Of a stretch of 32,000 bases of DNA, positions 3,763 through 31,672 are shown piece after piece. The position numbers and the translations under genes are program-made. Numbering within the stretch: the stretch's first letter is position 1; the number at the start of each line of letters is the position of its first letter. This DNA comes from Candidatus Omnitrophota bacterium (GTDB lineage Bacteria > Omnitrophota > Gorgyraeia > Zapsychrales > JANLHA01). The notes under the pieces are model-generated. The model saw nothing but the letters and a program-made list of their open reading frames with translations. It was not told where the DNA came from and did not search any database. Where the stretch lies: positions 2,640,001 to 2,672,000 of the forward strand of contig OY759724.1 in assembly GCA_963662715.1 (NCBI GenBank). The letters are read 5' to 3'.

Positions 3763-3830
3763 GAAACACACCTTTATGTTGGTTTCAATTAAGAATTAAA
3801 GGTCGCGCCCTTTCCCCGGGCTGTGCTCTT

Positions 3831-4733
3831 TTACAGACTTTTTTGCGAAAGCTCCTGTTCTCCGAACTGCAGCGTCAGAGCCTCGGAAATGTCTCCTGAG
3901 TTAAAAAGAGGCTGTTCAATATCCGGCTGAGGTTCAGAACCGGCAATTTCAAAACGGGAAATCCCGAACAGATAACTTTGAGTCAAATCAAAGGCAACAT
4001 CATCTTCATGACCGGTATCCAAAGCCCGCGAGAATTCAATGGTCCAGCGGCCCTGCGCCCATTTGCCTTTGGCCTTAATATCGGCTCTGCTTCCCGTGGG
4101 GTCTTGCAGAGTGAATGGAGGCATTTTCTCCTTTTCGTAATCAACCACGATATTGTTTTTATATGCGCTGGCTCCTTCGTCGCCTCTGCGGACCAGATAC
4201 ATGTCCTGACCGCTTTTAGAAGTGACCTTTTTCGCCTTTTTCTGTTTCGTCCTTGAGAATTGTTGATATTTATCATCGGCATATCCCACAGGATCCGTCC
4301 GGACCGCTTTCCAGAACCAGATATCGGCCATGAATTCGTCGTCGCTTTTTACGGACAAATCGACCGGCCTGCTCTCCATGTTCCATTTAAAGATAAAAGT
4401 GTCTTCCCGTTCAGGCCCCGGTTTATAGATCTGCTCCTCTTTATCCCATGTCAATGCCTTGTGAGTTACCGATTCATCGGGGTCAGGATAAGAAACCAGG
4501 AAGAAAATTTGCTCGTCCGTATACAGGGCTTTGATCGTAACCGGGATTTCTGCGGTCTTGTCCATCGTTGTATATTCGGTTGCGAATTCCCAGACATGAT
4601 CAGTCCCGTCCCCGTCGATGACTGGAGATTTGTCGACTTTTTGCGCGATGATGGTTTGGTCGGCCGATGAAAAAGAGGACAAAGAGGATAACAGAAATAC
4701 TATGATCAAAATAATCCAACGTGAACAGTTCAT
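3831..4733 (-). CDS. Secreted DOMON / EB_dh-like (ethylbenzene-dehydrogenase-gamma-type, putative heme-binding) protein
   Basis: There is a signal peptide (WIILIIVFLLSSLSSFSSA). The motifs VIDGDGTDHVW...IKALYTDEQIFFLVSYPDPD and DIWFWKAVRTDPVGYADD resemble the EB_dh/CBM9-like DOMON fold as I remember it. The SD AAGGAAGG lies 5 nt before the ATG. Confidence 0.5.
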   Translation of the reverse strand: MNCSRWIILIIVFLLSSLSSFSSADQTIIAQKVDKSPVIDGDGTDHVWEFATEYTTMDKTAEIPVTIKALYTDEQIFFLVSYPDPDESVTHKALTWDKEEQIYKPGPEREDTFIFKWNMESRPVDLSVKSDDEFMADIWFWKAVRTDPVGYADDKYQQFSRTKQKKAKKVTSKSGQDMYLVRRGDEGASAYKNNIVVDYEKEKMPPFTLQDPTGSRADIKAKGKWAQGRWTIEFSRALDTGHEDDVAFDLTQSYLFGISRFEIAGSEPQPDIEQPLFNSGDISEALTLQFGEQELSQKSL

Positions 4734-10930: not shown

Positions 10931-11782
10931 TTAGTTGTGCCAAAAGTTGTGAGAGTTTAACGGAGATGGCTGAAGCCATCTTGGTTGAATAGCTTCCGGT
11001 GCCGGAGGCTTATAACCCAATGATCCATGCGGACGGATCGTATTATATTCCCACCGCCAGCGTTCCACCAACACCTGAGCTTCATACAATGTATCAAAAA
11101 TTTCCAGATTTAACAACTCATCCCGTAGTCGCCCGTTAAAGGATTCAATATATCCATTTTCCCAAGGGCTTCCCGGTTCAATATACAACGTTTCCACTCC
11201 GATCCGTCTCAACCACCAACGGACGCGTTCAGCGATAAATTCCGGCCCATTATCCGAACGAATATATAACGGCACTCCTTTTTCAATAAACAATCGAGAT
11301 AAAACATCAAGCACATTCCTGGAATTGAGTTTGCGCCCAACTTCTATGGCCAGGCATTCCCGGCTATACTCATCAATGATCGTTAACATCTTTATTGGTC
11401 GGCCATTTGATGTCCGGTCATGAACAAAATCATAACTCCAGACGTGGTTGTGATGTTCTGGCCGTAATCGGATGCAGGAACCGTCATTCAGCCATAACCT
11501 CCTTCGTTTAGGTTGTTTCATCGGAACTTTAAGACCTTCCCGTCTCCATAAACGTTCGACTCGTTTATCATTTAATGGCATCCAGCCCGATTCGCGTAAC
11601 AATTCAGCAACTTTTCGGTATCCATATCGTCCATATTGCTTGACCATATTGATCATAGCCTCAACTAATGCTCCTTCATCATATCGGCCTGAACATCTAT
11701 ATTGCTGTGTTGATCTTGCTTGGCTAAGAATTTTACACAACCGCCTTTCTGATACTTTGGGGAATTTCTCCTTCGCCCACAT
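10931..11782 (-). CDS. IS3-family transposase OrfB (rve/DDE catalytic core)
   Basis: Motifs present: [19 protein letters not shown] and [13 protein letters not shown] count 35 residues between the second D and the E, giving DD(35)E. An HTH_21-like N-terminus ([32 protein letters not shown]) precedes the core. It is probably made as an OrfAB fusion. Confidence 0.9.
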
Positions 11783-17031: not shown

Positions 17032-17544
17032 ATGGGAACCAGAGGAAGAGAGATACTGGAGTCTTTAGGAATTAAAATCCCTGAGCTGATTCATTTATTG
17101 AATAAAGCTTATGCCGATGAATGGTTTGCTTATTACCAGTACTGGCTTGGGGCCAAAGTGGCCGTGGGGATCCCGCGTGAAGCCGTTGTCGCCGAGCTGG
17201 TCCAGCACGCCGCGGATGAATTGCGGCACGCCGGGATGGTTGCGGACAGGATCATCCAACTGGGAGGAACCCCGCTGCTTGAACCGCAGGACTGGTACAC
17301 CTCGACAAACTGCGGTTACGATAAGCCCGAGAATCCGGATGTGCGGGTTTTGCTGGATCAGAATATTAAAGGGGAACAATGCGCCATCACCGTCTATAAA
17401 AATTTAATGGATTATACGAAAGATAAAGATCCTGTCACGTATGATATTGCTCTGCAGATTATGACAGATGAAATCGAGCATGAAGAAGATCTGGAAGCGA
17501 TTAAAGAGGATATCAAGATGGCATACGGACAATACAAAAAGTAA
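17032..17544 (+). CDS. DPS-like (DPSL) ferritin-superfamily di-iron antioxidant protein
   Basis: The four-helix-bundle metal ligands follow the pattern E...ELRH ... E...EIEHE. The stretch GEQCAITVYKNLMDYTKDKDPVTYDIALQIMTDEIEHEEDL closely resembles the archaeal/Bacteroides DPSL sequence as I recall it. The SD AAGGAGG is well placed. Confidence 0.75.
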   Translation: MGTRGREILESLGIKIPELIHLLNKAYADEWFAYYQYWLGAKVAVGIPREAVVAELVQHAADELRHAGMVADRIIQLGGTPLLEPQDWYTSTNCGYDKPENPDVRVLLDQNIKGEQCAITVYKNLMDYTKDKDPVTYDIALQIMTDEIEHEEDLEAIKEDIKMAYGQYKK

Positions 17545-17697: not shown

Positions 17698-19176
17698 TCA
17701 TTCCTGGATTTTGAATTTTTTGACCAGCCCCTTCAGCAATAATGCCTTGTCGTATAAGTTCCGGGCGGACTCGGCCAGATCAGCGGAGGACATCGTGAAG
17801 GCCTGAGTAATGCCGGAGTTCGAGTCCATGGCGATCTGCTGCTCTTCGGTCGTCTCCGTAATGTCCCGGATCTGTTGGGCAATGGATGTCATGGCCGCAA
17901 CAATTTTCTTGACATCTTCGCTGGCTTTTCGTGAGAGAGAAACGCTCTCTGCGACCTGCTGCAAACTGTCATGGATAACGTTTGTGATCCCCTGTGCTGA
18001 TACGGCACTGCGTTCGGCGAGTTTCCGCACTTCATCGGCCACAACGGCGAAGCCTTTCCCGTGTTCGCCGGCACGGGCCGCTTCAATAGCGGCGTTTAAG
18101 GCCAGAAGATTTGTCTGTTCCGCAATTTCCGTAATGACATCAACGATTTTGTTGATCTCTTTAAAACAAAGCTCTACAGAATTAATGGCCATCGTTGAGC
18201 TATCCATGGCTTGTCCGGTTTCTTCGGCCCTGACGGCGGCCTGGCTGGAAAGTTTGACGACTTCCCGCGCTTTTGACGTGTTTTCCTCCACCGAAGCAGA
18301 GAGTTCTTCGAAGCTCGAAGCTTGCTGTGTCGCCCCTTCCGAAATGGAATTGGCGCCGACGGCAATTTTTTTGCAGTCAGCTGAAAGGCTGTCGGCCGAC
18401 ACCTTGACATTAAGGAGGAGATTTTGAATTTTTTCACAGAACATGTTGAAAGCAGCCGAAAGCTTCCCGGCCTCATCTCCGCTTTCGCAGGCGATCCGTT
18501 TTGTTAAATCGCCTTCTCCCCGGGCGATGTTCTGCAACATTCCCGCGACTTTTTTGATGGGGCTGGCGATGCTCTTGTCAAGCCAGAAAACCAGGGCGCC
18601 GCCTAATAAAGCGGCTATCGTTGTCAGAAAAACATTAAACCAGAGGGTGCTGCGGGCGATGATATTCACCCTCCCCAGAGATTGTGACATATGACGCATA
18701 TCTTCTTCCTGGAAATCATCAAGAAGGAGATGGATTTTCTCACTGTTTAACCGGACCGAAAAGGAGGATCCCGGGCCAGGGCCTGCCGTGGGCTGTGTTT
18801 TATGCAAATAATTCAGGTGTTTATGAAATAATTCTTTTATTTCAGAGAGTTCCCTAAGACGGGTTTCGTTGTCTTTGAGGTCTTCTTCGAGTTCAGAAAG
18901 GTTGCGAAGAAATCTCTCTTCGAGAATTTTTAATTTTTTCAGATCCCCGGGGTTTGGCGACGCAGGCCCTTGAGTGTGAATTTGCTGCATTTTGAGGACC
19001 GTTTCTTTCATGTCCGTGCCGTAATTCAGATGGGTGAAATCGTGATGCTCAACACAGTGGGTATTTTCTTGAATTTCCAGCAGCGTATAAATACTGCAGA
19101 TGCAGACGGTCATTAAAAATAAGAAAATGATTCCGGATGAAAAGAATAATTTTGTCTGAATATTCCAGTTTTTCAT
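17698..19176 (-). CDS. Methyl-accepting chemotaxis protein (HAMP plus MA domain)
   Basis: The conserved hairpin [39 protein letters not shown] is present. There are two TM segments ([16 protein letters not shown] and [17 protein letters not shown]) and a HAMP region. Confidence 0.85.
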
Positions 19177-19675
19177 GTCGAGGATATTACAGTCTTTGTC
19201 CCTTTTCCTGGGGGCAGTGATTATTTGTCAAAACCAAGGATGCTCTTTAATCCTGAACGAAAAGATAGTTCAGCGCATCTCGGCCGGGGTGAAGGGGGCG
19301 TATAATAGAAGAAGAGGCAAGAAAAGAACTCATTCCCGCAGGCTTTGCCGTGTTATAATGCCGGGAGACACTGAAAATGATGTCCCAATAAATCATTCCG
19401 ATCGTTAGCGTTACAGTTATATTATTCTAAACACAAATGAACCGGCAATCTATGAATTTTTTTCTTTTTTGCCCCTTATCATATCTTTTTGCCGCCCGGA
19501 AGTATAAGGCGATCTTTTTTTTTCGCCTTTTAGTTAAAATGGATGTTGTTCATGAATAATATTTTTTAAAAGAGTGTTAGATATAAGGGCCTTGCAACGT
19601 CTTAAATAGTAACAAGGCTTTTTGTTTTTTTGGGGTGAAAATCTATTAATATCAAAATCGTTTCAGGAGGTGACT

Positions 19676-22600
19676 ATGGGATTGAGAATTCGAATAGTGT
19701 TCGTGGCCGTATTGTTATCATTCTTCCTGACTGGTGTCTGCGCTGCCGGTTTGGTCTATCAGGATTTTGAGGAAGGCAACGGCTCCGGGACATACGGGTG
19801 GGGATTTAATTCTGCCGTTACGGAATTTTCGGCAGGAGAGGAGCCTGTTTATTCCGGGGCGCGTTCGTGGAAGATAACATCTCCCGGGGACTGGGGGGGC
19901 ACGGGCATCGCTTCCCAGGTGCAGACCTGGGACATGGATTTTGAGCCTGACCGGCACGACCGTCTGGTCTTTTGGGTTTATGCCCTTCCGGAAGAGACGA
20001 GCGAGAGCCTGGATAATGGCGTGGCCGTGAAGTTTTTTGACCGGGAGGATTACCGGAGCTCCGGCTTTGAAGTCTGGACAAGTAAGGCGGCAAAATACGG
20101 GGAATGGACACAGCTTTCGGTTCTTTTTTCCCAGCTTCCGGACGGATTCAATCTTAACAGAATAGACAAGATAGAATTCGTCAATGAAAATCCCGGCACA
20201 TATTATCTGGATGATATCCATGTCGTTTCCGCTGACCGGACATATCAGTCTTTTGAGCCGATTCTTTATGACCCTTATTTTACCGGTGAGGAATATGAAA
20301 AATACGGCTGGGCCTGGTTCGGGATCGTGGATCTTTTTGTCGATGATCAGATTGTCCAGGAAGGACAGCAGTCCTGGATGCTGGACACGCATGACCTCAT
20401 GGGAGGGACAGGGGTCAAATCCCAGGAAAAGAAATTTGTTGATAATGAACAGTCTCCCTGGTACGTGGATTTGCTGGGGGTTCGGGATCCGCTTTTACCG
20501 GAGGACAGCCCGTATGACCGGGTGACATTTTGGGTTTATTCCCTGGCAGAGAACGGATTGGATAATAATATCGGCATGCAGTTTTTTGACCACAATTACT
20601 GGGTGGAGGATTTGGAAAATCCGGAGGAACGCAATCCGTTTATATTGTGGACCGAAGGGACGGCTGATTACGGGGAGTGGAAAAGATTCACGGTCAAGTT
20701 CGATGAACTGCATTCTGGCGATCCTGCCGAACCGCCGGTGGATTTGCAGAATCTTAATAAGATCCAGTTTCAGGTGTACTGGCGAGGACGTTATTTCTTC
20801 GATGACATTCGGGCGACGAAACCGTTCCCGGAGATCGATAGAATATCCTTAAAAGACGGCACAGCCGAATGGAACACAATAGCCGGGGCGGATATTTATG
20901 TCTTGCAGCAAAGTTCAGCGGGGGCGAATGGCCCGTGGGAAACGATTTATGAAGGGCCTAGCACAAACGTTCCGGTCAGCAGGGTTTCCCAAGTCTGGTT
21001 ACGGGTCGCCTGGAAAGAAGCGGTAGACCCGGCGAGCAATCCCGTCCCTTACATGTCGGATTGGAGCGATGTGGCCAGTTATACACCGGCGCCGGTCCTT
21101 ATCAGTAAGGACGCATTGAAACAGGGCACCCTGCAATGGTCTGATCTGCCCCAGGCCACGCAATATGAGGTTGAGATGGCCAGCAGTAAACGCGGTCCGT
21201 GGATTCCTGTTTATAACGGGCCTTATACAACACTTGCGGCAGCAACCGGGATATGGTACCGGGCCAGAGCGCTTATTGAGGACAGCGGGGCTGTCGTGGA
21301 TACGGGCGAATGGAGTCCGGCGCAGACCTACACGCCGGGGACAGGATACATTAAGGCTGTTGGAAAGATTCTTAAAGAAGAGGACGGAACAGGAGATAAT
21401 ATTATTCTCCGGGGCGTGAATTTGGGGAATTATCTTCTGATAGAACCCTGGATGACCGGAATAACTCTTGATACGAACCAGAGAACGGAAGATGACTGGA
21501 ATATCCGGGAGGAGTTGATCCAGCGTTTCGGGGCCCAGGAAGCCGACCGTTTGCTGGGAATCTATCAGGATGCCTATATCACGGAAACAGACCTGAACCA
21601 CATCCTGCGAAGCGGAGCCAATTTGATCAGGCTTCCTATTTACTACCGGGCGCTCCGGGAGCTTGATGAAAATACCGGGGAATGGGTTGCCGGCACAGAT
21701 TATAATTTTGACAAGATAGATGCTGTTGTGAATCTCTGCGCTGACCGGGGTATTTATGTCCTGCTGGATTTGCACGGCGCTCCGGGTGCGCAGAGCAAGG
21801 AATTTCATTCCGGCCGTACTTCGGCAGAAAGTCCGGGCCAGGGATTTTATCATAAATTGTTTGACCCGACAGATGATACGTACCGGCAGAGAACCACAGA
21901 GCTTTGGCAGGCTTTAGCGGATTATTACAAAGATAATACGACAGTCGTGGGGTATGATCTTTTGAACGAACCCTTCGGAGCCGTCGATGCGTATTATTAC
22001 GCCAATTATCATGATGGGTTAACGGCGCTATGGACTCTCTATGATCAGCTGTATGACGCCATTCGCGCCATAGACCCCCATCACCTTATCGTGATGGAAG
22101 CGATCCCCAGTGACAAAGACTGGGAAACTTTGCCTGACCCGGACGGGTACGGCTGGACAAATGTCATGTATCAATTCCACTACTACGGGTTCAAGCTTGA
22201 CGAAAACGGCAGCATCAACGGCGTGCTCGATGCGGATCAGCAGAAGGCCTATTTGGTCAGCGGGAATGACCCGGAGTGTGCTGTGTACCCGGATGATGAT
22301 AAGTTCTGCGGAAAGGTTTTTTATTCTCAACAGGACGAATATGATGTCCCCGTCCTCATCGGGGAGTTCAACGGGTTTGATCAGCGGGAAGTTTGGGACC
22401 TGTTTTTAACGACGTTCAATAAACAGGCCTGGAACTGGACGATGTGGTCTTACAAGCATCACCCCAAAAGAGAATCATGGGGGTTATATACGCATGTGAA
22501 TTATGATGAGGATGCTCCCAACGTCAGTCTCGATGACACCGCCACTTTAGAAACAAAATTGGCAAAATATGATACTTTTGTTCACCATGAACCGAATGTG

Positions 22601-23446
22601 ACTTTAAACAAAGTCCTTAAAAATTATTTGACCCAGCAAACCCTTGTTACCCAACCGGCTCTGGCGGGCCGCACCGCCGATGAAGTCAATCATCGTTGGT
22701 CTTCCGTTGACTTTGCGGACCGTTTTAAGAAAAAACCGGTGTTGGTGGCAGGAATTGAAACATATAACGGCCCCAATACTGCGGGCTTGAGAATCAAAAG
22801 CCTGAACAAAGGACGATTTAAAGTGAAAATCGAAGAGGAGCAGTCAGGGGACCCGGAAACAATTCATACGACAGAAGTCGTGAGTTATCTGGCCCTGGAG
22901 CCGGGTATTGTTCTGGATGATACGGGCACGGTTATCGGTGAAGCAGGAAGCGTCACGGCCTATCAACGCAACGGCGCCCAGTGGCATACGGTTACGCTGG
23001 AGCAGGAATATTCCAATCCCGTTGTTCTGATGCAGATGACAACCTATCATGGCCGCCAGCCTTCTCATATCCGTTTAAGGAATGTTTCCGGCCATTCCTT
23101 TGAGTATCAAATCGAAGAATGGGATTATCTGGATCAGTGGCATTTAACCGAGAAAATCAGTTATGTCGTTTTAGAACAGGGCGTTCACACTCTTACCAAC
23201 GGCCAGACTATTGACGTGGGCACCGTGGATACGGATGAAAACTGGATAACGGTCCCGTATGCCGCGAGTTTTAATGCGGCTCCGGCCACAATAAGCCACT
23301 GTCAAACGTATAATGCCGGACAGGCTGTGATCACGCGCGAACAGAATGTGTCAAACAGCAGTTTTGAAGTCAAGCTGCAGGAAGAGGAGGGCGGAGCAGG
23401 TCCTCATCCGGTGGAGACAATCGGCTACATTGCCGTTGAGTTATAG
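19676..23446 (+). CDS. Secreted multidomain glycoside hydrolase family 5 enzyme (2 CBM-like, 2 FN3-like, GH5, 3 H-type-lectin-like repeats)
   Basis: GH5 signatures: RGVNLGN, RLPIYY, LLDLHGAPG, the acid/base motif YDLLNEP (E codon 21968-21970) and the nucleophile motif IGEFNG (E codon 22364-22366). The start is taken at ATG 19676 (MGLRIRIVFVAVLLSFFLTGVCAA), with AGGAGGTGA upstream, not the track's 19622. Confidence 0.8.
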   Translation: MGLRIRIVFVAVLLSFFLTGVCAAGLVYQDFEEGNGSGTYGWGFNSAVTEFSAGEEPVYSGARSWKITSPGDWGGTGIASQVQTWDMDFEPDRHDRLVFWVYALPEETSESLDNGVAVKFFDREDYRSSGFEVWTSKAAKYGEWTQLSVLFSQLPDGFNLNRIDKIEFVNENPGTYYLDDIHVVSADRTYQSFEPILYDPYFTGEEYEKYGWAWFGIVDLFVDDQIVQEGQQSWMLDTHDLMGGTGVKSQEKKFVDNEQSPWYVDLLGVRDPLLPEDSPYDRVTFWVYSLAENGLDNNIGMQFFDHNYWVEDLENPEERNPFILWTEGTADYGEWKRFTVKFDELHSGDPAEPPVDLQNLNKIQFQVYWRGRYFFDDIRATKPFPEIDRISLKDGTAEWNTIAGADIYVLQQSSAGANGPWETIYEGPSTNVPVSRVSQVWLRVAWKEAVDPASNPVPYMSDWSDVASYTPAPVLISKDALKQGTLQWSDLPQATQYEVEMASSKRGPWIPVYNGPYTTLAAATGIWYRARALIEDSGAVVDTGEWSPAQTYTPGTGYIKAVGKILKEEDGTGDNIILRGVNLGNYLLIEPWMTGITLDTNQRTEDDWNIREELIQRFGAQEADRLLGIYQDAYITETDLNHILRSGANLIRLPIYYRALRELDENTGEWVAGTDYNFDKIDAVVNLCADRGIYVLLDLHGAPGAQSKEFHSGRTSAESPGQGFYHKLFDPTDDTYRQRTTELWQALADYYKDNTTVVGYDLLNEPFGAVDAYYYANYHDGLTALWTLYDQLYDAIRAIDPHHLIVMEAIPSDKDWETLPDPDGYGWTNVMYQFHYYGFKLDENGSINGVLDADQQKAYLVSGNDPECAVYPDDDKFCGKVFYSQQDEYDVPVLIGEFNGFDQREVWDLFLTTFNKQAWNWTMWSYKHHPKRESWGLYTHVNYDEDAPNVSLDDTATLETKLAKYDTFVHHEPNVTLNKVLKNYLTQQTLVTQPALAGRTADEVNHRWSSVDFADRFKKKPVLVAGIETYNGPNTAGLRIKSLNKGRFKVKIEEEQSGDPETIHTTEVVSYLALEPGIVLDDTGTVIGEAGSVTAYQRNGAQWHTVTLEQEYSNPVVLMQMTTYHGRQPSHIRLRNVSGHSFEYQIEEWDYLDQWHLTEKISYVVLEQGVHTLTNGQTIDVGTVDTDENWITVPYAASFNAAPATISHCQTYNAGQAVITREQNVSNSSFEVKLQEEEGGAGPHPVETIGYIAVEL

Positions 23447-23469: not shown

Positions 23470-23522
23470 CGGGAGTCCTAAGATGTTTTATTTTATAACA
23501 TTGGGGCTCCCGTCGTTTTTTT
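23470..23522 (+). terminator. Probable rho-independent terminator
   Basis: A long interrupted hairpin. The outer stem is cgggagtcct/ggggctcccg (two G-U pairs) and the inner stem is atgtt/aacat. It is followed by tcg and T7, and begins 24 nt after the GH5 stop. Confidence 0.55.
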
Positions 23523-23560: not shown

Positions 23561-23582
23561 ATGCTTTATTTTTATAAAGCAT
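23561..23582. promoter_or_regulatory. Perfect 9-bp inverted repeat ATGCTTTAT-N4-ATAAAGCAT, candidate operator upstream of the TonB-dependent receptor gene
   Basis: Read directly from the sequence. It ends 58 nt before ATG 23640 in an AT-rich putative promoter region. The binding protein is unknown. Confidence 0.3.
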
Positions 23583-23639
23583 TGTATTAAAATAGCTTAA
23601 ATATTGTTAGCGCTATTTTGTAAGGATATATGATTTTTT

Positions 23640-25526
23640 ATGAAACCCCGTTTACTTGCTTTGAGCTTACTGTTTTTTTTCTTCCTGCCACTGTCTTTTT
23701 CTCACGCTGCCGAACAGAATGATTCTCAGGAAAAATCAATTATTTACCTTAAACCGATCATTGTTTCTGCCAAACGCACGGAGTCTTTTGGGCTGGAGGA
23801 ATCGTATGTCGCAGAAAACGCCACAGTGATCACCCGGGATGAGATAAATAATTTGCCTGCCCGTAATTTAACTGAAGCCTTGCGATATGTCCCCGGAGTG
23901 GATATAGCTCCAGGGTTTAAATTCGGTCAGGCTTCTGCGGTGACTATTCATGGTTCCAATGCCAGACATGTTTTACTGATGGTTGATGATATCCCTTTTA
24001 ATACGCATCTCTCCGGCCAGGCCAATCCCACACAGATTCCGTTAATGAATGTCAAACAAATAGAAGTTATCAAAGGCGCTTCTTCCAGCGCCTGGGGATC
24101 AAGTTTGGGAGGGGTGATCAATGTCCTGACGCAGGATGTCGGGGACACCGCTGTCCCGAAAATATCTTTAAAAGAAACGTATGCGGAATATGAGACAACA
24201 CAGCATGACTTGAATTTGTCCGGAAAGATTCAAGATGCCGGATATCTTTTGAGCGGCAGCTTTTTTTCAGCCGACGGGATAGGAGCCAATGATGATGTGA
24301 AGGAAAGCAAATTTTTTGGAAAAATAGCGCAGCCCCTGGGTGAGGATTTTAATATTTCCGCTTCGTTCGGCTACAGCGGGGCCAAGGCTGTGGATGAAGT
24401 CATCCGCAGTCATCGTTTATATGAGAGGCCTTATCAAGCCCGTTATGGGAAACTGCAATTGGGATACGAGCCGCGGGATGATTTCAACTGTAAAATAGCC
24501 TATAAATATAACAACCAGGACATCTCAACAGATATCTACAACACTCTAACTGCCCAGCAGCTGTCTTCCACTGTAAGCCATCATGTCTTTCACGGCCTGT
24601 CCCTGAACGCGGATTACCGCTTTGAAAATGATGACCTGCTGGTGGCGGGCGCTGATTTTGAATGGCAGGAGATAAAATCCAATAATTACTTAACGAGCAG
24701 CCAGGACATCAGCATACAGGCGCCTTATATGAATTACACGTTTCAGCAGGAGCGTTGGGAGCTCATCCCGGGGATAAGATTTGATAATGCTGACCGTTTC
24801 GGAAATCAATGGAGTCCCAGTCTGGGGTATGTTTACCATTTCAATTCAAATACTCTGGGCCGGGCCAAGGTGGCCCGTGACTTTAATGCCCCGCCGTTAT
24901 TATGGATTTTTAATGATGACCCGACTCTTTTGGTCGGTCCGAATCCTGATTTAAAAGCCGAAAGGGGTATTTTGTACGAACTGGGCCTTGAAACAGAGGT
25001 GAAGAAACTGAACGCCAAGCTGAACTGGTATTGGGCGGACATTAAGGATGCTTTGAATATTGTTTTTAACAGTGATCTGGGGGTTTTCCGGGCGGAAAAT
25101 GTCCGTAAGTTCCGCCGGCAGGGGGTCGAAGGGAACCTGAGGTATAAGCTTTCACCGGAATGGCAAATTTACGGAAACGCGGGATTTAATCATTCCGTCA
25201 ACCGCACGACCCGGCAGATTGTCCGCGGGAACGGAACGGCCCGGCAGAGTTTTCAGTTGGGTGTCCAATATAAACATGATAAAGGATTCGGATGTCATTT
25301 ATTGGGTTCCTATAACCGCTGGGACTCTGTCCCCTCCCAGGAGCCTAATGATAGAAAACCTGTTTTTGATTTAAAGGTGACCCAGGATTTCAAGCGGATA
25401 TTTCATCACACAGATGTGCAGTTTTTTGTTCATGTTTATAATATTGCCAACAGCAAATACTGGTCTGATATTTCTTTCCCTGACCCTGAGCGTTATTTTG
25501 AAGGCGGTTTTGTGCTCAGCTTTTGA
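23640..25526 (+). CDS. TonB-dependent outer-membrane receptor (small, BtuB-sized, 628 aa)
   Basis: There is a signal peptide. The plug domain reads VITRDEINNLPARNLTEALRYVPGVDI...IHGSNARHVLLMVDDIPFN...IEVIKGASSSAWGSSLGGVINVLT. A long beta-barrel follows, with a terminal aromatic residue (...GGFVLSF). Confidence 0.85.
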   Translation: MKPRLLALSLLFFFFLPLSFSHAAEQNDSQEKSIIYLKPIIVSAKRTESFGLEESYVAENATVITRDEINNLPARNLTEALRYVPGVDIAPGFKFGQASAVTIHGSNARHVLLMVDDIPFNTHLSGQANPTQIPLMNVKQIEVIKGASSSAWGSSLGGVINVLTQDVGDTAVPKISLKETYAEYETTQHDLNLSGKIQDAGYLLSGSFFSADGIGANDDVKESKFFGKIAQPLGEDFNISASFGYSGAKAVDEVIRSHRLYERPYQARYGKLQLGYEPRDDFNCKIAYKYNNQDISTDIYNTLTAQQLSSTVSHHVFHGLSLNADYRFENDDLLVAGADFEWQEIKSNNYLTSSQDISIQAPYMNYTFQQERWELIPGIRFDNADRFGNQWSPSLGYVYHFNSNTLGRAKVARDFNAPPLLWIFNDDPTLLVGPNPDLKAERGILYELGLETEVKKLNAKLNWYWADIKDALNIVFNSDLGVFRAENVRKFRRQGVEGNLRYKLSPEWQIYGNAGFNHSVNRTTRQIVRGNGTARQSFQLGVQYKHDKGFGCHLLGSYNRWDSVPSQEPNDRKPVFDLKVTQDFKRIFHHTDVQFFVHVYNIANSKYWSDISFPDPERYFEGGFVLSF

Positions 25527-25721
25527 TATTCCCCTGCCTGTAATTTAAGAAATTCCCCTTAAATATGTTATAAATTATTTATTTATTAATATTTTACAAT
25601 AAAAAGTATAAAAAAGTCAGTTCAGGGGTGAATGGCCCTATTTACGAATAAAATTATTGAGTTAAAATAAATAAGAGGATTAGTATTAAAAAAGCCAGAT
25701 ATTTTTATTATTCCATCAGCT

Positions 25722-27413
25722 ATGTTTTCAGTACCCCGGAAAAAATTTTTGTTTGTTTTATGTGTTTATTTTCTTTTTTTCACATTAATACTGTTAAATG
25801 TTAATAAGTATTCCTGGGCAGAAGATCAACAATTACTTAGTGAAAAACAGGCTCTCCCGATCCATTCACATTCACCGGAATATGGGGGGACGTTGGTATG
25901 GGGAACAACAGATCCGCCAACGGTCATTAATCCCGTTTTTACGCGTTATAGTATTTCAGCTTCTTTATTGGAGTTGATATTTGATTCTTTAGTACGAGTT
26001 CATCCCCAAGGGCATGTTGTCCCGGGGCTTGCTGAGTCATGGGAGATTTCGGATGACGGGTTAGAATATACCTTTTATCTGAAAAAGGGCGTGCATTTTC
26101 ATGACGGAGTGGAATGCACGGCCGAGGATGTGAAATTCACTTATGAAGCCATTGCTGATCCTCAAAATAATTCCCCCCGTCTTGTATGTTTAAACATCAT
26201 TGACAGATGGGAGATAGTAGATAAATACACGATACGGCTCGTATTAAAGAAATCTTTTTCTAAAATTCTTCATAGATTGACTATTGAAATTGCTCCTAAA
26301 CATATTTTAGACGGCGAAGCCTTACTCGCTTCTCCCTTCAATTATTCACCTGTCGGGACCGGGCCGTTCCGTTTTAAAGCATGGGACAGGAGAACGGATG
26401 AAATTGAACTGGTTGCTAACGAGGATTATTTTGAAGGCCGGCCATATCTTGATAGAATTTTAATTCATATTTATCAAGATAAATCCTGCTTGTGGGCGGC
26501 TTTGATGCGCAATGACGTGGATTTATGTATTTTTCTTGATCGAGAGGATTACATGACTATCAGGAATGATCCGGCTTTCAGGACTTATGAAATTACCGGG
26601 GAGCTTTATTTGGCCATAGCTTTGAATGCCAAGGATCCCATTTTTTTTGACAGAGAGGTTCGCAAGGCCATGGCATACGGGATCAATGTTGATGAAATTA
26701 TGGCTTATACCTCTTCCGGCGGGATAAAAAGCACCGGGCCGTTTCATCCGGGTTCCATTGGTTTTAATCCGGGAGTCAGGCCTTTTGAGTATGACCCGGT
26801 GATGGCGAGGATGATTCTGATGCATCGCGGCTGGTGGGATAAGGATCATGACGGGATCGCAGAAAAAGGTGGGCGGGAACTCGAATTGCGTTTATTGGTG
26901 GATCCTAGAAGTGAATTTTATAAAGATTTGGCTATGCTGATTCGCCAGCAATTGGCAGAGATCGGGATAAAAGTGTCTGTGCTTCTTCATCCGGAGGAAA
27001 GGACTCTTGAACAAACCTTTTTAGATCAGAACAAACCGCAGGGATGGTTAAGATATTTTTTGGGTTATGGATTTGGAGGTTATGATGCCGCTGTCAGCTG
27101 GACGTCCTCGTTAAGCCCCTATGAGAGACTTTGGAATTATCGGAATGACGAAATCGATAAATTGTTTGGTACAGCCGTTGCAACACAGGATCCCCAGGAA
27201 TTAAGCGAAATTTATCAGCAGATTCATAAAATTGTTTATCAGGATCAGCCGGCCTGTTTTTTGTTTTATCCCAGCAGCTATCATGCTGTTGCGGCAAAAT
27301 TTTTTAATACGGACGAATTTTTTTCCGATTTTATGCCTGTTTATACGATTAAGGATTGGTATTTAGGCCCTGCGGCTAAAGACGTCCAGCATAATGATTC
27401 CGGGCTGAAGTAG
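25722..27413 (+). CDS. Periplasmic solute-binding protein, family 5 (peptide / nickel / metallophore type), orphan with no permease genes nearby
   Basis: There is a signal peptide. The SBP_bac_5 pattern is present: GGTLVWGTTDPPTVINP...DSLVRVHPQGHVVPGLAESWEISDDGLEYTFYLKKGVHFHDGVECTAEDVKFTYE...PVGTGPFRFKAWD. Confidence 0.85.
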   Translation: MFSVPRKKFLFVLCVYFLFFTLILLNVNKYSWAEDQQLLSEKQALPIHSHSPEYGGTLVWGTTDPPTVINPVFTRYSISASLLELIFDSLVRVHPQGHVVPGLAESWEISDDGLEYTFYLKKGVHFHDGVECTAEDVKFTYEAIADPQNNSPRLVCLNIIDRWEIVDKYTIRLVLKKSFSKILHRLTIEIAPKHILDGEALLASPFNYSPVGTGPFRFKAWDRRTDEIELVANEDYFEGRPYLDRILIHIYQDKSCLWAALMRNDVDLCIFLDREDYMTIRNDPAFRTYEITGELYLAIALNAKDPIFFDREVRKAMAYGINVDEIMAYTSSGGIKSTGPFHPGSIGFNPGVRPFEYDPVMARMILMHRGWWDKDHDGIAEKGGRELELRLLVDPRSEFYKDLAMLIRQQLAEIGIKVSVLLHPEERTLEQTFLDQNKPQGWLRYFLGYGFGGYDAAVSWTSSLSPYERLWNYRNDEIDKLFGTAVATQDPQELSEIYQQIHKIVYQDQPACFLFYPSSYHAVAAKFFNTDEFFSDFMPVYTIKDWYLGPAAKDVQHNDSGLK

Positions 27414-27480
27414 CAGAGAAGTAAGGAGATCATGCATAATCATTTTCCTAAATTTAAAATCATGAAAGGAGGTGATGATC

Positions 27481-27588
27481 ATGGAAATACTGAGACCCGG
27501 AACCGATGATGTCATGGAGCTGTCCGTGAGAGGATGTTGTTGGCCACCAAGTATAGATAACATTACAGTTCCCGAACCCGAAGAGTAA
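27481..27588 (+). CDS. Unannotated 35-aa ORF, candidate RiPP precursor peptide MEILRPGTDDVMELSVRGCCWPPSIDNITVPEPEE
   Basis: My own translation; the ORF is below the track's length cutoff. The SD is near-perfect: AGGAGGTGA, with AGGAGG at 27467-27472 and 8 nt to the ATG. It lies 72 nt upstream of, and on the same strand as, an rSAM/SPASM enzyme. It has a Cys-Cys pair followed by potential acceptor residues (W, S, D, N, T, E). The evidence is position, SD and composition only. Confidence 0.5.
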   Translation: MEILRPGTDDVMELSVRGCCWPPSIDNITVPEPEE

Positions 27589-27594
27589 TTCCCG

Positions 27595-27632
27595 GGGATT
27601 CCGTTGGCCCCTGTCTCTGTTAACGGAATCCC
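27595..27632 (+). promoter_or_regulatory. Intercistronic stem-loop between precursor ORF and maturase gene
   Basis: A perfect 11-bp stem gggattccgtt (27595-27605) / aacggaatccc (27622-27632) with a 16-nt loop. It begins 7 nt after the peptide stop and is followed by a moderately T-rich stretch (tgtatattgtttg). Confidence 0.5.
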
Positions 27633-27660
27633 TGTATATTGTTTGCGGAAGAGGTTTTTT

Positions 27661-29013
27661 ATGAAATATTCTCATTATACGATTATCGTTCATGATTATC
27701 CTCAGGAAAAGCAGTATTTGCTTTTCAATACCCGTTCCCAGGCCCTTGTGAAGATCGAGCAGGAATTAAAGGATGTGATTGAAAACTACCGGGCCCCGGA
27801 ATATTTCCGGCAGAGGTTCCAGTACAGCCAGGAATTGGCACAGCTGCATCAGATGGGAGTGATCGTCACGGATGAGCAGGAAGACAAAACCAGACTGGAG
27901 GATTTTTTTAGGCAAATAAAATTTGGGCTGGATACGAAGGTGTTGTCCGTGAATATCCTTACAACGTATGCCTGCAATTTTAAATGTGTGTATTGTTTTG
28001 AAGAAAGCAGCCGGGAAGATGAGCAGATGGACCTGCTGACCTGCGATATGATTATGAGTTGGCTCAAAAAACGTATGCAACGTTTTGGATATGAAAAATT
28101 ATATTTGATTTTTTACGGCGGGGAACCATTATTAAATACCAAAGCTATCGAGTATATGGCGGGACACATGCAGAAATGGTGCCGTGAACAGCATAAAGCA
28201 TTCAATTTTATGCTGCAGACAAACGGATATCTGTTCTCTCCTGATATCGCGGAACATTTGTTGCCGTTAGGGCTGGACAATGTCCGCGTAAGTCTGGACG
28301 GCCCCCAGGAGGATCATGACCGTACACGTCCTCTGGCTTCAGGGGGAGGGTCTTTTTCCCGGATTGTAGAAAACATCTTGTCCAATATTAACCGGGTGAA
28401 AATCAGTGTTTCCGTGAGTTATCAGCAGGGAAAAGTTGACCATATACAACGGTTGCTTGATTATTTTGAAGAACAAGGGATTTTATCTAAATTGGGACGC
28501 TTTATTTTTGCTCCTGTTTATGCCTCTCTGGGTGCTCCGGGGACTCCGGACAAGATCCGGCACAGGGAATGTTTAGGCAATTGCCAGCCGGAATATATGG
28601 TGCCGGCTGTCAGAAAAATAAACCAGATTTTGCAGTCCAAGCAGCTTGCGAACACTCATGGTTTGGGAATGAGTGCCTGTCCATTGACCCGGGAATACGG
28701 AGGCATAACCATTGATCAACAGGGCCGTGTTTTTAAATGTAACATGATGCTGGGACATCCCGAATATGCTGTGGGTGACGTCTGCTTTGAAGGATTTAGC
28801 CGCAGACATGAGGAGTTCCGGGATCTTGATGTCTGGCGGCAGTGTCCCGAGGATTGTCCATATCTTCCGCTTTGCGCCGGAGGATGCCGTTTAGCGTCGT
28901 TCCTGGCCCATCAGAATTTCCATACACCCGTGTGCCACAAAGCCTATTTAGACGCTATGGCAGAAGATTTTATTAAGCAGGAATACCGGGAATTGCAGGC
29001 GAAGCAAGGCTAG
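27661..29013 (+). CDS. Radical SAM / SPASM-domain peptide maturase with RRE-sized N-terminal extension
   Basis: Numbering is from M at 27661. There is a ~95-aa N-terminal extension (YTIIVHDYPQEKQYLLFNTRSQALVKIEQEL). The rSAM cluster motif is C105-X3-C109-X2-C112 (YACNFKCVYC), followed by GGEPLL. The C-terminal SPASM pattern is C340...G..C360...C395-X3-C399-X5-C405-X3-C409...C425. The start is taken at ATG 27661 rather than the track's TTG 27604. Confidence 0.85.
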   Translation: MKYSHYTIIVHDYPQEKQYLLFNTRSQALVKIEQELKDVIENYRAPEYFRQRFQYSQELAQLHQMGVIVTDEQEDKTRLEDFFRQIKFGLDTKVLSVNILTTYACNFKCVYCFEESSREDEQMDLLTCDMIMSWLKKRMQRFGYEKLYLIFYGGEPLLNTKAIEYMAGHMQKWCREQHKAFNFMLQTNGYLFSPDIAEHLLPLGLDNVRVSLDGPQEDHDRTRPLASGGGSFSRIVENILSNINRVKISVSVSYQQGKVDHIQRLLDYFEEQGILSKLGRFIFAPVYASLGAPGTPDKIRHRECLGNCQPEYMVPAVRKINQILQSKQLANTHGLGMSACPLTREYGGITIDQQGRVFKCNMMLGHPEYAVGDVCFEGFSRRHEEFRDLDVWRQCPEDCPYLPLCAGGCRLASFLAHQNFHTPVCHKAYLDAMAEDFIKQEYRELQAKQG

Positions 29014-29031
29014 GGGGAGTGTTTTAAAAAT

Positions 29032-30897
29032 ATGGAATCCAAAATAAACATGAAAAAATTGTTTTTTCCCTACCGAATGTGGCAGCAGATTTTTATTCTT
29101 TTAGTCCTTCTCGTGCTCATTCCCCTTGCTTTGTTAGCGAAACTTATTATGGATACAAGTCAAAAAGCCATTAAGACATCAGTTTTGCGGGACCGGCAGG
29201 AACTTGTCATGCATACGACAGGAGAGGTGAAAGCTTATATTCAAAATGCCAAGGACGCCTGCGTTACGCTCGCCGCGCTCCTGGGCACTTTACCCGACGA
29301 CCTGTGGCGGCAGGAGACCGCGATCGTTGAACTGGCGTTACATCATCCCGAGTTCCAGAGGATTTCTTTGCTGAATTTGGCGGGAGAAGAAACAGTCACC
29401 TCTCAGTTGGGAAGTGAATTGAGAAACCGGGCTCATGAAGAGGCTTTTCAGAGGGTGCAAGAGGGGGAGGTTGAATATATCTCGGACGTGAAAATCAACG
29501 AAGAATCTTTCGCCACTATGACATTAGCGGTGCCGATTAAACGGAGCGGAAAAGTTTCGGGTATTCTTCTGGCGGACGTGAGCATCCGGGGGGTGTGGCA
29601 GATGGTGGATCAAATAAGAATAGGAGAATCCGGACGGGCGTATCTTGTGGATTCCCAAGGCCGGTTACTTTCTCATCCGGATAAGAAGCTGATTTTTCAG
29701 CCTGATAAACTTCTTAACCCTATTATTATACGGAATATTTTATCCGGTTATGCCGGTGAATATGAAGAAATTGCCCCTTCAGGAAAGCATTGGTTGATTG
29801 CCTATGCGCCTATTGATGTGTTGAACTGGGGGCTGGTCATATTCCAGCCTGTTGAAGAAGCCTTTGTTTTTTCCAAGGTCATGAGGCAGCAATCCTGGAA
29901 GTTTATTGTCCTGATTATTTTTTCTTCCATTTTGATAAGTTTCCTTATGTCGCATTTTTTGAGCCGTCCCATACATAAGTTGATTTCGGCCATGCAGCGT
30001 GTATCCGTGGGTAATCTGGATGAAAGGCTGGATATTGCGAGAAAGGATGAAATAGGCGAACTTTTTGAGTCATTTAACAGGATGACAGTCAAGTTGAAGG
30101 AAGCCAAACATTCTGAGAAGCTTTCCACAATCGGAAAAGCAGCGACGGCTATTGCCCATGAACTCAAGAATTCCTTGGTGATGGTTAATGCCTATATTGA
30201 TTTATTGCCGGAACGCCATATGAACCGGAAGTTTATACAAGACTTTTCTAAGAATGTATCCGAGGAGCTCGATTCCTGGAAAGCCATGTTGCAGAATATG
30301 ATGGAATATTCCAAGTTTTTTAAGTTTAGAATGGAAAAATTGGACGTCAATGAGTTGATGGTGGATATTAAAAGTCTGGCTTATCAGCGGACCCAGCAGA
30401 AAGGCGTTGATTTGATGATGCATGCGGGGTCTTTTATCCCGCCTGTTATCGGTAATGCGGCAAAATTGAAAGAGGTCCTGACGAATTTAATCAATAATGC
30501 GGTAGATGCGACCTCTCCGGGAGGAGTGATTACGCTATCGATGGATTTCCTTGAGCAAGCATCAGAGTGGGGCAAACCCCATGTGCGGATTCAGGTCATT
30601 GATTCCGGAGAAGGCATAGCGGAAGAAGATATCGATAATATATTTGAACCTTTTTATACAACCAAAGAAAGCGGGCTGGGATTAGGGCTGGCCATCAGCA
30701 AAAAGATCATTGAATATCATGGCGGAACCCTTGAAGCCATGAAAGGTCGCTCAAAAGGGGCGGTCTTTACCATTCGGCTTCCGATCCTTAAGAAATTTTA
30801 TGAACGCCGAAATCAGCAGGGGAAGGAGGATGGCTTTAAGGCATCTTTGCCCGGCAGGAACCAAAGAGGCGGTTATAAAAACTTTTTGAAACAGTGA
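29032..30897 (+). CDS. Sensor histidine kinase (TM, Cache-like periplasmic domain, TM, HAMP, HisKA, HATPase_c)
   Basis: Cache-like motif: GESGRAYLVDSQGRLLSHPD. Second TM: FIVLIIFSSILISFLMSHFL. HAMP: PIHKLISAMQRVSVGNLDERL...IGELFESFNRM. H-box: AIAHELKNSL. N and G boxes: NLINNAVDAT, DSGEGI, GLGLGLA. It starts 18 nt after the maturase stop. Confidence 0.85.
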   Translation: MESKINMKKLFFPYRMWQQIFILLVLLVLIPLALLAKLIMDTSQKAIKTSVLRDRQELVMHTTGEVKAYIQNAKDACVTLAALLGTLPDDLWRQETAIVELALHHPEFQRISLLNLAGEETVTSQLGSELRNRAHEEAFQRVQEGEVEYISDVKINEESFATMTLAVPIKRSGKVSGILLADVSIRGVWQMVDQIRIGESGRAYLVDSQGRLLSHPDKKLIFQPDKLLNPIIIRNILSGYAGEYEEIAPSGKHWLIAYAPIDVLNWGLVIFQPVEEAFVFSKVMRQQSWKFIVLIIFSSILISFLMSHFLSRPIHKLISAMQRVSVGNLDERLDIARKDEIGELFESFNRMTVKLKEAKHSEKLSTIGKAATAIAHELKNSLVMVNAYIDLLPERHMNRKFIQDFSKNVSEELDSWKAMLQNMMEYSKFFKFRMEKLDVNELMVDIKSLAYQRTQQKGVDLMMHAGSFIPPVIGNAAKLKEVLTNLINNAVDATSPGGVITLSMDFLEQASEWGKPHVRIQVIDSGEGIAEEDIDNIFEPFYTTKESGLGLGLAISKKIIEYHGGTLEAMKGRSKGAVFTIRLPILKKFYERRNQQGKEDGFKASLPGRNQRGGYKNFLKQ

Positions 30898-30964
30898 AAA
30901 GCTTAATTCTAACGTAATTTCCCTTAAAGGCTGTGGCCTGTGAAAGGGAGGAAAGGCTGGGGAT

Positions 30965-31672
30965 ATGCTTTCAGACAAGATTCTGGTTATTGACGACGAT
31001 CCCAAAATTATCCAGACGATTGATTTGATTTTCCGAGAATACGACATCATTGGTTTTCAGGACGGGAAAAGGGCCATAGAATATCTAAAAAAACCTAATA
31101 ATGTCCTGATCGTTCTGCTTGATGTCTGCATGAAGACGATCAACGGACTGGACGTTCTGCAGGAGATTAAAAGGATCGACAAAAATATTGCCGTTATTAT
31201 GATGACGGCTTTCGGAACCAAGGAAGTCGTGCTTGAAGCCTTGCGGGGGCATGCAGATGACTTCTTGGACAAGCCTTTCCATGTTGATGATTTAAGATAC
31301 AAAGTGAAGATTCATCTTAAAGACCGGATGTTGAAATGTCATGTCGGAGAGAACAGCCGGGTTGAACGGATCAAACGTTATATTGAAAGAAATTCTGACG
31401 TTGTCTCTCTTGAGCATGTCGCGGAAGAGTTGAATTTAAGCCCCCAGTATGTCAGCCGGTTTTTTAGAGAGCACAATATTAAGGGATTCAGGGATTATAA
31501 AATTGAAATTAAGCTCACCCGGGCAAAACATTTGCTTAAAAATACAACTTTCTCCGTAAGCCAGATTGGAGAACAGCTGGGGTATCAGAACCCCGAATCA
31601 TTTATGAGAATTTTTAAGAAGAACACCCAGGTCACCCCTTCGCAATTCAGAGAACGGGCCCTGGATTCTTAG
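30965..31672 (+). CDS. Response regulator with AraC-type HTH output domain
   Basis: REC region: KILVIDDDPKII...VLLDVCMKTINGLDVL...MMTAFG...FLDKPF. AraC HTH region: LEHVAEELNLSPQYVSRFFRE...SQIGEQLGYQNPESFMRIFKKNTQVTPSQFR. Confidence 0.85.
   Translation: MLSDKILVIDDDPKIIQTIDLIFREYDIIGFQDGKRAIEYLKKPNNVLIVLLDVCMKTINGLDVLQEIKRIDKNIAVIMMTAFGTKEVVLEALRGHADDFLDKPFHVDDLRYKVKIHLKDRMLKCHVGENSRVERIKRYIERNSDVVSLEHVAEELNLSPQYVSRFFREHNIKGFRDYKIEIKLTRAKHLLKNTTFSVSQIGEQLGYQNPESFMRIFKKNTQVTPSQFRERALDS

Follow-up and report, generated by a model that had tools for sequence, protein, structure and literature searches.

A Cys-Cys peptide gene ahead of a radical SAM/SPASM maturase in an Omnitrophota genome, and the receptor and sensor genes of its cassette

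The small gene and its family

The stretch of DNA considered here, 32,000 nt from a Candidatus Omnitrophota bacterium (contig OY759724.1, positions 2,640,001 to 2,672,000; hereafter the window), contains a gap of 247 nt between two real genes, one for a periplasmic binding protein and one for a radical S-adenosylmethionine (SAM)/SPASM maturase. An open reading frame (ORF) of only 35 codons is housed in this gap. Is so short an ORF a gene at all, and if it is, what is its product for? A preliminary description of the locus had seen in it a precursor-type peptide, and comparison with related loci bears this out: the N-terminal leader is conserved, a Cys-Cys core follows it, and the whole is encoded directly 5′ of the maturase. 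On the sequence comparisons given below, 27481-27588 is a real, presumably translated and selectively maintained gene, and its 35-residue product is very probably the substrate (precursor) peptide of the enzyme encoded at 27661-29013. The gene, its parts and the enzyme gene that follows are:

27467-27475, + strand: Shine-Dalgarno (SD) sequence of the precursor gene, AGGAGGTGA
27481-27588, + strand: precursor peptide gene, ATG at 27481-27483 to TAA at 27586-27588, 35 codons plus stop, product MEILRPGTDDVMELSVRGCCWPPSIDNITVPEPEE
27481-27534, + strand: leader region, residues 1-18, MEILRPGTDDVMELSVRG, with the motif M-E-I-I/L-x-x-G-T/S-D-D-V/L
27535-27585, + strand: core region, residues 19-35, CCWPPSIDNITVPEPEE, with Cys19-Cys20 (27535-27540) as the presumed modification site
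27593-27634, + strand: 16-bp stem-loop between the precursor stop and the maturase gene (minimum free energy -25.8 kcal/mol, z -2.8)
27661-29013, + strand: radical SAM/SPASM peptide maturase, 450 aa, with an N-terminal domain predicted to resemble a RiPP recognition element (RRE; RiPP, a peptide made on the ribosome and modified after translation)

The coordinates and translation in the preliminary description proved exact. Its claim that the gene has the strongest SD of the window is essentially right, since the 9-mer AGGAGGTGA has only two exact copies in 32 kb, at 27467 and 19665. The 8 nt spacer given there also agrees when counted from GGAGG to ATG 27481; from the end of the 9-mer the distance is 5 nt. 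The SD context AAAGGAGGTGA is present as well in the two closest relatives (loci L161 and L162) and in most orthologues. Orthologue N-termini read M-E/D-I at the equivalent of 27481, with identical SD spacing; the start codon in L162 is GTG. A mechanical ORF list opens the frame at GTG 27472, and there is an in-frame ATG at 27475. Both were rejected as the precursor start because they lie within or against the SD and because the orthologues open at the equivalent of ATG 27481.

Conservation of the ORF is extensive. A small ORF immediately 5′ of orthologous maturases was found in ~15 fetched loci, and an equivalent ORF with an SD ahead of related maturases in ~55. Every close orthologous locus fetched has the small ORF and SD, 60-150 nt 5′ of the maturase; there are no frame breaks and the start is retained. 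Examples of the orthologous peptides are MDIVRPGSDNLKDLAVRGCCWPPGLDRIEIPTQED (L161), MEIIRPGSDDLKVLSVRSCCWPPGMDSMERPEPED (L162), MEIINEGTDDVNQMSALSCCWPPGTQTTTFPTE (L001) and MEVIKEGTEIVHEISVLGCCWPPGTVSWTNPEPEE (L004). Set against its two closest relatives, the window gene differs at 11/6/21 and 9/6/24 sites of codon positions 1/2/3, and within the block encoding RGCCWPP there are synonymous changes only (codons AGA GGA TGT TGT TGG CCA CCA versus CGC GGC TGC TGC TGG CCG CCA). The remaining five frames contain stops or show no conservation in relatives. The overlapping frame at 27432-27509, which had been named as a possible real gene in place of the precursor, was rejected: it has stops in relatives, and the DNA 5′ of the SD, which makes up most of 27432-27509, is unalignable between the window and these loci.

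The ORF had also been described as missed by the ORF track. This holds for length-filtered tracks but not for the public record, where the exact 35-aa product from the source genome is held in a protein collection (P0126, NCBI and ENA). In the public gene calls of the two closest relatives the precursor is uncalled (L161, 7823-7930; L162, 7818-7925). A 15-member profile run against a 5.8-billion-protein collection retrieved 43 called peptides that fit the family, the window peptide among them, all unnamed or "hypothetical protein." The family is systematically under-annotated. An exhaustive phmmer search with the single peptide gave six matches, two of them by chance to large repeat proteins, and a 40-aa in-frame extension of the peptide, used as a protein-database query, matched only the peptide itself. 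One large protein, P0171 (1034 aa), looks similar to the window core GCCWPPSIDNITV in three repeats, FRQTSKGCCGDPSIDNVRV (residues ~175-215, 450-490 and 730-770). We judged these repeats (e.g., GCCGDPSIDN) to be a chance resemblance and not homologues; the E-value was 4e-4 in a 1.8-billion-protein search and the protein is large and unrelated.

The peptide family has the consensus M-E-I-I-[NK]-x-G-T-D-D-[VIL]-x-x-M-A-A-L-S-C-C-W-P-P-G-[TS]-E-x3-4-P-E-x. The CC is invariant across all members, and in the 15-member alignment the initiator Met and the Pro two residues past the CC are invariant as well. Fourteen of the 15 clade members have 18 residues from the N-terminus to the CC, and the tail beyond it runs to 11-18 residues. 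Where the clade consensus reads CCWPPG[TS], the window has the variant CCWPPSI; TGYTGYTGGCCNCC was found once in the window. With its two nearest relatives the window makes up a subclade that has I, L or M at CC+5, D at CC+6 and a tail end of P-E-P-E-E/D. The Asp, Glu or Thr acceptors suggested earlier are conserved only in part: CC+5 is T, S or C in 40/43 members but Ile in the window, and an E or D stands at CC+6 in roughly two thirds of the family. The acidic EPEE tail, also remarked on earlier, is of a type that is frequent in the family but not universal, and some members end in a basic tail.

The maturase and the geopeptide system

The mechanical ORF list starts the maturase at TTG 27604. 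We rejected this start in favor of ATG 27661 because the homologue consensus opens MKLS..TIIV and because a TTG extension would span the hairpin. The enzyme has 805 database homologues at E<=1e-20, many of them full-length and 40-60% identical and mostly from Candidatus Omnitrophota metagenome-assembled genomes. No match came from scanning species-representative genomes with the maturase as a single sequence; relatives in these genomes were reached through an alignment-based scan. A metagenome scan gave, among the matches listed, mostly distant relatives. The protein is matched by PF04055, and its radical SAM motif CX3CX2C (C105, C109, C112) is invariant in 49 homologues. So are C340, G355, C360, C395, C399, C405 and C409 of the SPASM region, with C304 and C425 at least 90% conserved. 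The top NCBIfam match is TIGR04280, the geopeptide radical SAM maturase (264.1 bits, full length, cutoff 400). It is followed by CefB, TIGR04463, FlmE/OhkG, PapB, Clo7bot, SCIFF maturase and QhpD-type models, none of which comes near its cutoff.

An AlphaFold2 model of the maturase (mean predicted local distance difference test, pLDDT, 92.9) has an N-terminal domain of three strands and three helices, a TIM-barrel core and a C-terminal SPASM region. In the N-terminal beta3-alpha3 domain the strands span residues 7-11, 18-23 and 29-33 and the helices 34-41, 46-54 and 56-64, with pLDDT >95. Foldseek ranks the thioether synthase CteB first (5WGG, E 3e-20, TM 0.68, full length), then anSME, SuiB, TigE and ChlB, and phmmer against PDB sequences likewise puts CteB (5WGG) at the top. 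The full-length structural alignment takes in the RRE of CteB. As modeled, the N-terminal domain of the maturase is RRE-like. This assignment rests on the AlphaFold2 model, since a Pfam scan of the maturase gave no PqqD match.

What family does the pair belong to? Geopeptides (TIGR04229/TIGR04280) are known from Geobacter and the Desulfuromonadales and are defined only computationally. Like the window peptide, they are 27-35 aa long and encoded directly 5′ of the maturase on the same strand, with an I/V-x-V/I-L-x-x-G leader, an invariant CC and a short tail; TIGR04280 is the best family for the window enzyme, and a TonB-dependent receptor and a kinase adjoin in both. They differ in that their enzymes are 27-29% identical to the window maturase, and in the core, CC[TSAG]xxSxR[SAK] in geopeptides versus a CCWPPG[TS]E-like core with a longer, often acidic tail in the window clade. 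The cassette of the window clade also has, beyond what geopeptide loci have, a family-5 binding protein, usually an ATP-binding cassette (ABC) exporter, and an AraC-type regulator, all co-directional.

TIGR04229 gives weak matches in only 2/15 clade members, the best at 20.6 bits (an Omnitrophota orthologue peptide). Geobacter-type peptides reach 20-35 bits on it, and on TIGR04280 the enzymes paired with them reach 625-645 bits. An upstream peptide preceded by an SD, e.g., MAIEVLDEGVENAAMVSACCTAASGRS, is likewise found with more distant relatives of the maturase (25-30% identical; Desulfuromonadales, Nitrospirota and others); these peptides have an I/V-x-V-L-x-x-G leader, an invariant CC and a tail of 6-12 residues. 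Aligned profile to profile (hhalign), the two sets of peptides match from leader to CC (P 8e-4), and the leader motif aligns with geopeptide IEVLDEG. We read the window pair, on this sequence evidence, as a divergent sister branch of the geopeptide system that falls outside both curated models, and the CC-peptide pair as a variant of a known, computation-only, uncharacterized RiPP family. The peptide and its enzyme belong to a large cross-phylum family in which a leader of ~18 residues, bearing a Gly and a beta-strand motif, precedes an invariant CC and a tail of 11-18 residues.

The chemistry is best approached through CteB/CteA (thermocellin, SCIFF), PapB and QhpD-like enzymes, which have the same arrangement of RRE, radical SAM TIM barrel and SPASM domain with two auxiliary clusters. 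CteB leads the matches in sequence as well as in fold, and its substrate carries donor cysteines. The two enzymes are only ~16-18% identical, and the window peptide has two Cys where SCIFF has six, with no NCBIfam match. On TIGR03974 (SCIFF maturase; SCIFF/ranthipeptide) the window enzyme reaches 96 bits of the 425 required, on the PapB model 123 of 340, and on TIGR03906 (QhpC/QhpD, cysteine tryptophylquinone or CTQ) 92 of 453, and the cassette is without dehydrogenase subunits. CteB takes up its leader on the RRE as a beta-strand, one auxiliary cluster offers an open iron to which a substrate Cys can bind, and Cys32 is linked to a Thr that lies five residues off in vitro (Cys32-Thr37) or else two residues off (PMC8326336). 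The C-W-P-P-G-T of the window clade has the same Cys to Thr spacing (i+5) as CteB in vitro, with Ile at that position in the window. This shared spacing is a lead. By analogy with CteB, the formation of Cys thioether rings would be the most likely chemistry, a choice that we make tentatively. Trp-centered chemistry (CTQ-, streptide- or darobactin-like), which the preliminary description had entertained, is disfavored as the core reaction of the family because the W after the CC is replaced in 9/43 members (W 34/43, F 7/43, Y 1/43, M 1/43) and other residues (T, S, A, G, K or P) stand there in the wider geopeptide relatives.

The cassette and the fate of the product

The precursor and maturase genes stand within a longer cassette, the other members of which in the window are:

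23640-25526, + strand: TonB-dependent outer-membrane receptor, 628 aa, Plug and beta-barrel domains (PF07715, PF00593), the first gene of the cassette
25722-27413, + strand: family-5 periplasmic solute-binding protein of the peptide/nickel type, 563 aa (PF00496, E 1.9e-72)
29032-30897, + strand: sensor histidine kinase, 621 aa, with periplasmic dCache_1, HAMP and HATPase domains, syntenic in the clade
30965-31672, + strand: response regulator, 235 aa, with a receiver and an AraC-type helix-turn-helix (HTH) output domain

The order is thus receptor, binding protein, precursor, maturase, dCache/HAMP kinase and receiver/AraC-HTH regulator, all co-directional, and loci of Omnitrophota, Planctomycetota and Auribacterota repeat it with proteins 25-77% identical. 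Among all fetched CC-peptide loci with at least 2.5 kb of upstream flank, 44/45 (window included) have an adjoining TonB-dependent receptor, versus 5/41 of the relatives without a CC peptide. This tie between the CC peptide and an adjacent TonB-dependent receptor is a new finding here and has no place in the curated definition of geopeptides. A kinase homologue is present in 28 of the 35 CC-peptide loci that have both flanks; the response regulator is 76-77% identical in L161 and L162 and syntenic across the clade, and the binding protein is syntenic in all Omnitrophota-type loci.

The receptor has no N-terminal signaling extension, and the NCBIfam models that fit it best, BtuB-like and siderophore-receptor ones, all score below cutoff. 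The best solved relative of the binding protein is the oligopeptide-binding AppA of B. subtilis (1XOC, E 1e-60), and NikZ/NikA/CntA-type proteins come after it; the NCBIfam NikA, Opp4A and CntA models match it below their cutoffs. No permease or ATPase genes accompany it in the cassette. We also considered an MbnE-like identity for this protein and found it unsupported, as AppA and NikA-type proteins rank first. Most orthologous cassettes have an MsbA/HlyB-type ABC exporter of ~570-590 aa between the maturase and the kinase, without a C39 peptidase domain (e.g., L001 6371-8080 and L004 6438-8198).

Several sequence features may bear on expression of the cassette. A terminator-like hairpin with a T-run, from the gene before the receptor, lies at ~23471-23520. 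A perfect palindrome, ATGCTTTAT-TTTT-ATAAAGCAT, followed by TTGTATTAAA, is located at 23561-23591, ~50-80 nt 5′ of the receptor gene; L161 and L162 conserve the TTGTATTAAA block and a portion of the left arm of the palindrome. This region is a candidate promoter or operator of the cassette. The stem-loop at 27593-27634 is not a canonical terminator because it has no adjacent T-run, and a pattern scan found no canonical intrinsic terminator after the peptide gene. A strong hairpin of unrelated sequence occurs at the equivalent position in 22/22 related loci examined, with T-runs in some. A hairpin after the precursor gene is the usual device by which RiPP operons hold precursor mRNA in excess, and it is common in operons of the PqqA/PqqE and MftA/MftC type. 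The hairpin in the window is probably a partial terminator or an mRNA-stabilizing element that sets the ratio of precursor to enzyme.

A sister family in Acidobacteriota/Vicinamibacterales (L016-L117), with radical SAM proteins 25-29% identical to the window enzyme, is arranged differently. Its precursor-like ORF has a single Cys and lies 3′ of the maturase, e.g., at 6389-6490 in L017 and ~50-100 nt past the radical SAM stop in L026, L050 and L100. The consensus MKI[KT]VIKKA...KPQx[FY]CPWxxD[DE]...KK was found in 24/31 loci checked. Genes for a family-5 binding protein and a kinase come next, and a TonB-dependent receptor is usually absent. An NtrC-type regulator lies upstream in L017, and regulator homologues are upstream in many loci of this family.

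How might the cassette work? We propose that the leader would dock as a beta-strand on the RRE-like domain of the maturase, by analogy with CteB-CteA, and that the fixed 18-residue spacing would then put Cys19-Cys20 in the active site. A Cys thiolate would bind the open iron of an auxiliary SPASM cluster, and the 5′-deoxyadenosyl radical would take a hydrogen atom from a downstream residue, giving one or two intramolecular thioether rings. The intercistronic hairpin would hold precursor mRNA above enzyme mRNA. The modified peptide would leave the cell, presumably by the ABC exporter in most orthologous cassettes, a gene not present in the window. The TonB-dependent receptor would re-import the product over the outer membrane, the AppA-like protein would bind it in the periplasm, and the dCache kinase with the AraC-type regulator would sense it. 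The combination of receptor, binding protein and kinase therefore points to a secreted and recaptured product, and on balance we lean toward a product that is released and then recaptured or sensed, as a metallophore or as a signal.

The uptake of ribosomal peptides back into the cell by design is rare, and methanobactin is the paradigm. There the gene of a ribosomal peptide with modified cysteines has as its neighbors, as here, those of a TonB-dependent receptor and an OppA/AppA-type binder together with a dedicated regulator, and neither system has a dedicated inner-membrane permease. Methanobactin operons encode the receptor MbnT and the OppA/AppA-like MbnE, and no inner-membrane importer is known for them (PMC7558416). 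The window differs in having no MbnB (DUF692)/MbnC or MbnA-type genes in 23640-31672 and a radical SAM protein instead, and in its two-component system where methanobactin regulation uses an extracytoplasmic function (ECF) sigma/anti-sigma pair. Bacteroidota provide a second comparison. In the Bacteroides itf cluster and related radical SAM RiPP clusters, a radical SAM/SPASM enzyme and a short precursor occur together with ABC and TonB-dependent transporters, and a Parabacteroides example also has a two-component system (PMC11002830, PMC9389541). These clusters differ in their unrelated precursors (an Ile-Thr-Phe motif or a 61-mer), an extra YcaO enzyme, a C39-peptidase transporter and a Trp-Ile C-C link. 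That the window product is a thiol- or thioether-based metallophore, analogous to methanobactin with its MbnT and MbnE, is possible but doubtful. The idea of metal binding draws indirect support from the conserved TonB-dependent receptor and the peptide/nickel-type binder, which a signaling role would fit equally well.

A number of results weigh against the reading of a geopeptide-related thioether peptide that is secreted and recaptured. On the family side, the window enzyme scores under the TIGR04280 cutoff and the window peptide has no TIGR04229 match even at E<=10 (cutoff 30 bits). Our literature search found no paper on "geopeptide," TIGR04229 or TIGR04280, and none that joins Geobacter, radical SAM, precursor peptide and TonB. 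On the side of chemistry, no universally conserved thioether acceptor residue is found downstream of the CC, and Thr at CC+5, the best acceptor candidate of the clade, is replaced by Ile in the window. Export and leader removal are unaccounted for here because the cassettes of the window, L161, L162, L007 and L011 have no ABC exporter between maturase and kinase (29013-29032 in the window) and the window cassette holds no protease; nor was an exporter found elsewhere in the 32 kb window. With respect to metals, the binding protein is not specifically MbnE-like, no Fur-box-like site was found within 3 mismatches, and no Rfam family, cobalamin and NiCo riboswitches included, was found in the window or in eight related loci.

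The alternative that survives best is that the product is an autoinducing signal without a metal role. The receptor would import the peptide, the family-5 binder would present it to the dCache kinase, and the AraC-type regulator would induce the cassette, perhaps with other genes besides. Cassettes of different phyla conserve the kinase and regulator, the closest relative of the binding protein is the oligopeptide binder AppA, and no permease or ATPase for cytoplasmic import is present. The Acidobacteriota sister family, which pairs the binding protein with the kinase and usually has no receptor, also fits a binding-protein-dependent sensor. A TonB-dependent receptor would, however, be a costly and unusual route for a signal, and the regulatory evidence consists only of the conserved block 5′ of the receptor gene. 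The two-component system is no help in choosing between the models, because siderophore and chalkophore systems also have dedicated regulators that respond to the loaded ligand. We regard a pure signal as unlikely, but as a serious contender.

An intracellular cofactor precursor, in the manner of PqqA/PqqE or MftA/MftC, seems improbable. The peptide would then be processed to a small cofactor, redox-active or metal-binding, for use within the cell. The receptor and binder would in that case scavenge the cofactor from neighbors, as PqqU does for pyrroloquinoline quinone (PQQ). The peptide is very short and PqqA-like, it is encoded next to an enzyme of the PqqE/MftC type (RRE, radical SAM and SPASM), and the cassettes of the window and its nearest relatives are without exporter and protease; the PqqU receptor model matches the window receptor, if weakly (60 bits). 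Against this, the peptide has neither the E-x3-Y motif of PqqA nor the C-terminal G-V-Y of MftA, the MftC model gives the enzyme 58 bits where its cutoff is 265, and the downstream tailoring genes are absent, with no equivalents of PqqB/C/D/F or MftD/E/F. No cofactor-dependent enzyme is conserved nearby, an ABC exporter directly follows the radical SAM gene in most orthologous cassettes, and the CC alone is invariant while the tail varies.

Many radical SAM/SPASM thioether peptides are antimicrobial, as is generally known (PMC8326336), and the exporter of most orthologous cassettes would suit a bacteriocin-like sactipeptide or ranthipeptide aimed at competitors, the receptor, binder and two-component genes then being regulatory or unrelated. 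This is very improbable, as there is no immunity gene, the exporter is without a C39 peptidase domain, the core is tiny and hydrophilic or acidic, and a near-obligate uptake receptor in the producer (44/45) is not a bacteriocin trait. Finally, that the ORF is non-functional, whether a chance ORF, a regulatory upstream ORF or attenuator controlling the maturase, or a shadow of a real gene at 27432-27509, can practically be dismissed: the ORF is short, 99 ORFs of at least 20 aa occur in 8 kb and a hairpin follows it, but its amino-acid sequence, length and spacing are kept over dozens of loci despite saturated synonymous divergence, while the other frames and the DNA 5′ of the SD behave in relatives as described above.

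Other genes of the window and the meaning of the family

Outside the cassette, the window holds several genes of other kinds. An ORF at 10931-11782 (- strand) with an rve-type integrase core and HTH_21 is an insertion-sequence transposase. A 1274-aa protein of the glycoside hydrolase family 5 (GH5) cellulase family is encoded at 19622-23446 (+ strand) with a listed TTG start. The second exact copy of AGGAGGTGA, at 19665-19673, is 43 nt inside this listed start, so the true start of the GH5 gene is probably a little downstream of 19673. A second, unrelated radical SAM gene with a B12-binding domain and a gene for an ethylbenzene-dehydrogenase-like (EB_dh) protein occupy 529-2079 (- strand) and 3831-4733 (- strand). 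There are two chemoreceptor genes of the methyl-accepting chemotaxis protein (MCP) type, at 2242-3771 (- strand) and 17698-19176 (- strand), and a ferritin gene at 17032-17544. None of the B12-type radical SAM, EB_dh, MCP and ferritin genes is in the cassette.

Genome mining yields new families of radical SAM RiPPs in large numbers, and one more would be unsurprising. Biosynthetic gene cluster surveys of Omnitrophota in the literature included none specific to this cluster. What sets the present case apart is the conserved uptake and sensing cassette, which gives a specific functional hypothesis: the near-obligate TonB-dependent receptor, together with the peptide/nickel-type binder and the sensor kinase, is a specific functional lead. 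Because the CCWPP clade lies outside existing models, annotation pipelines now in use call the enzyme "radical SAM protein," and the peptide is mostly missed or left unnamed. On the present reading, a 35-aa "hypothetical protein" becomes the key substrate of a seven-gene cassette conserved over several poorly studied phyla.

Beyond the window, the CC-motif peptides (the geopeptide superfamily and the CCWPP clade) might, speculatively, represent a widespread and unrecognized class of radical SAM-made metallophores or receptor-gated autoinducers. Such a class could conceivably extend over anaerobic diderms (Omnitrophota, Planctomycetota, Nitrospirota and Desulfuromonadales), each with its own TonB-dependent importer, binder and two-component sensor. 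If this is true, anaerobes would be using radical SAM enzymes to make a metallophore or a receptor-gated signal, which would be new as a natural-product function, and the system would be a radical SAM counterpart of methanobactin with new Cys-Cys chemistry.

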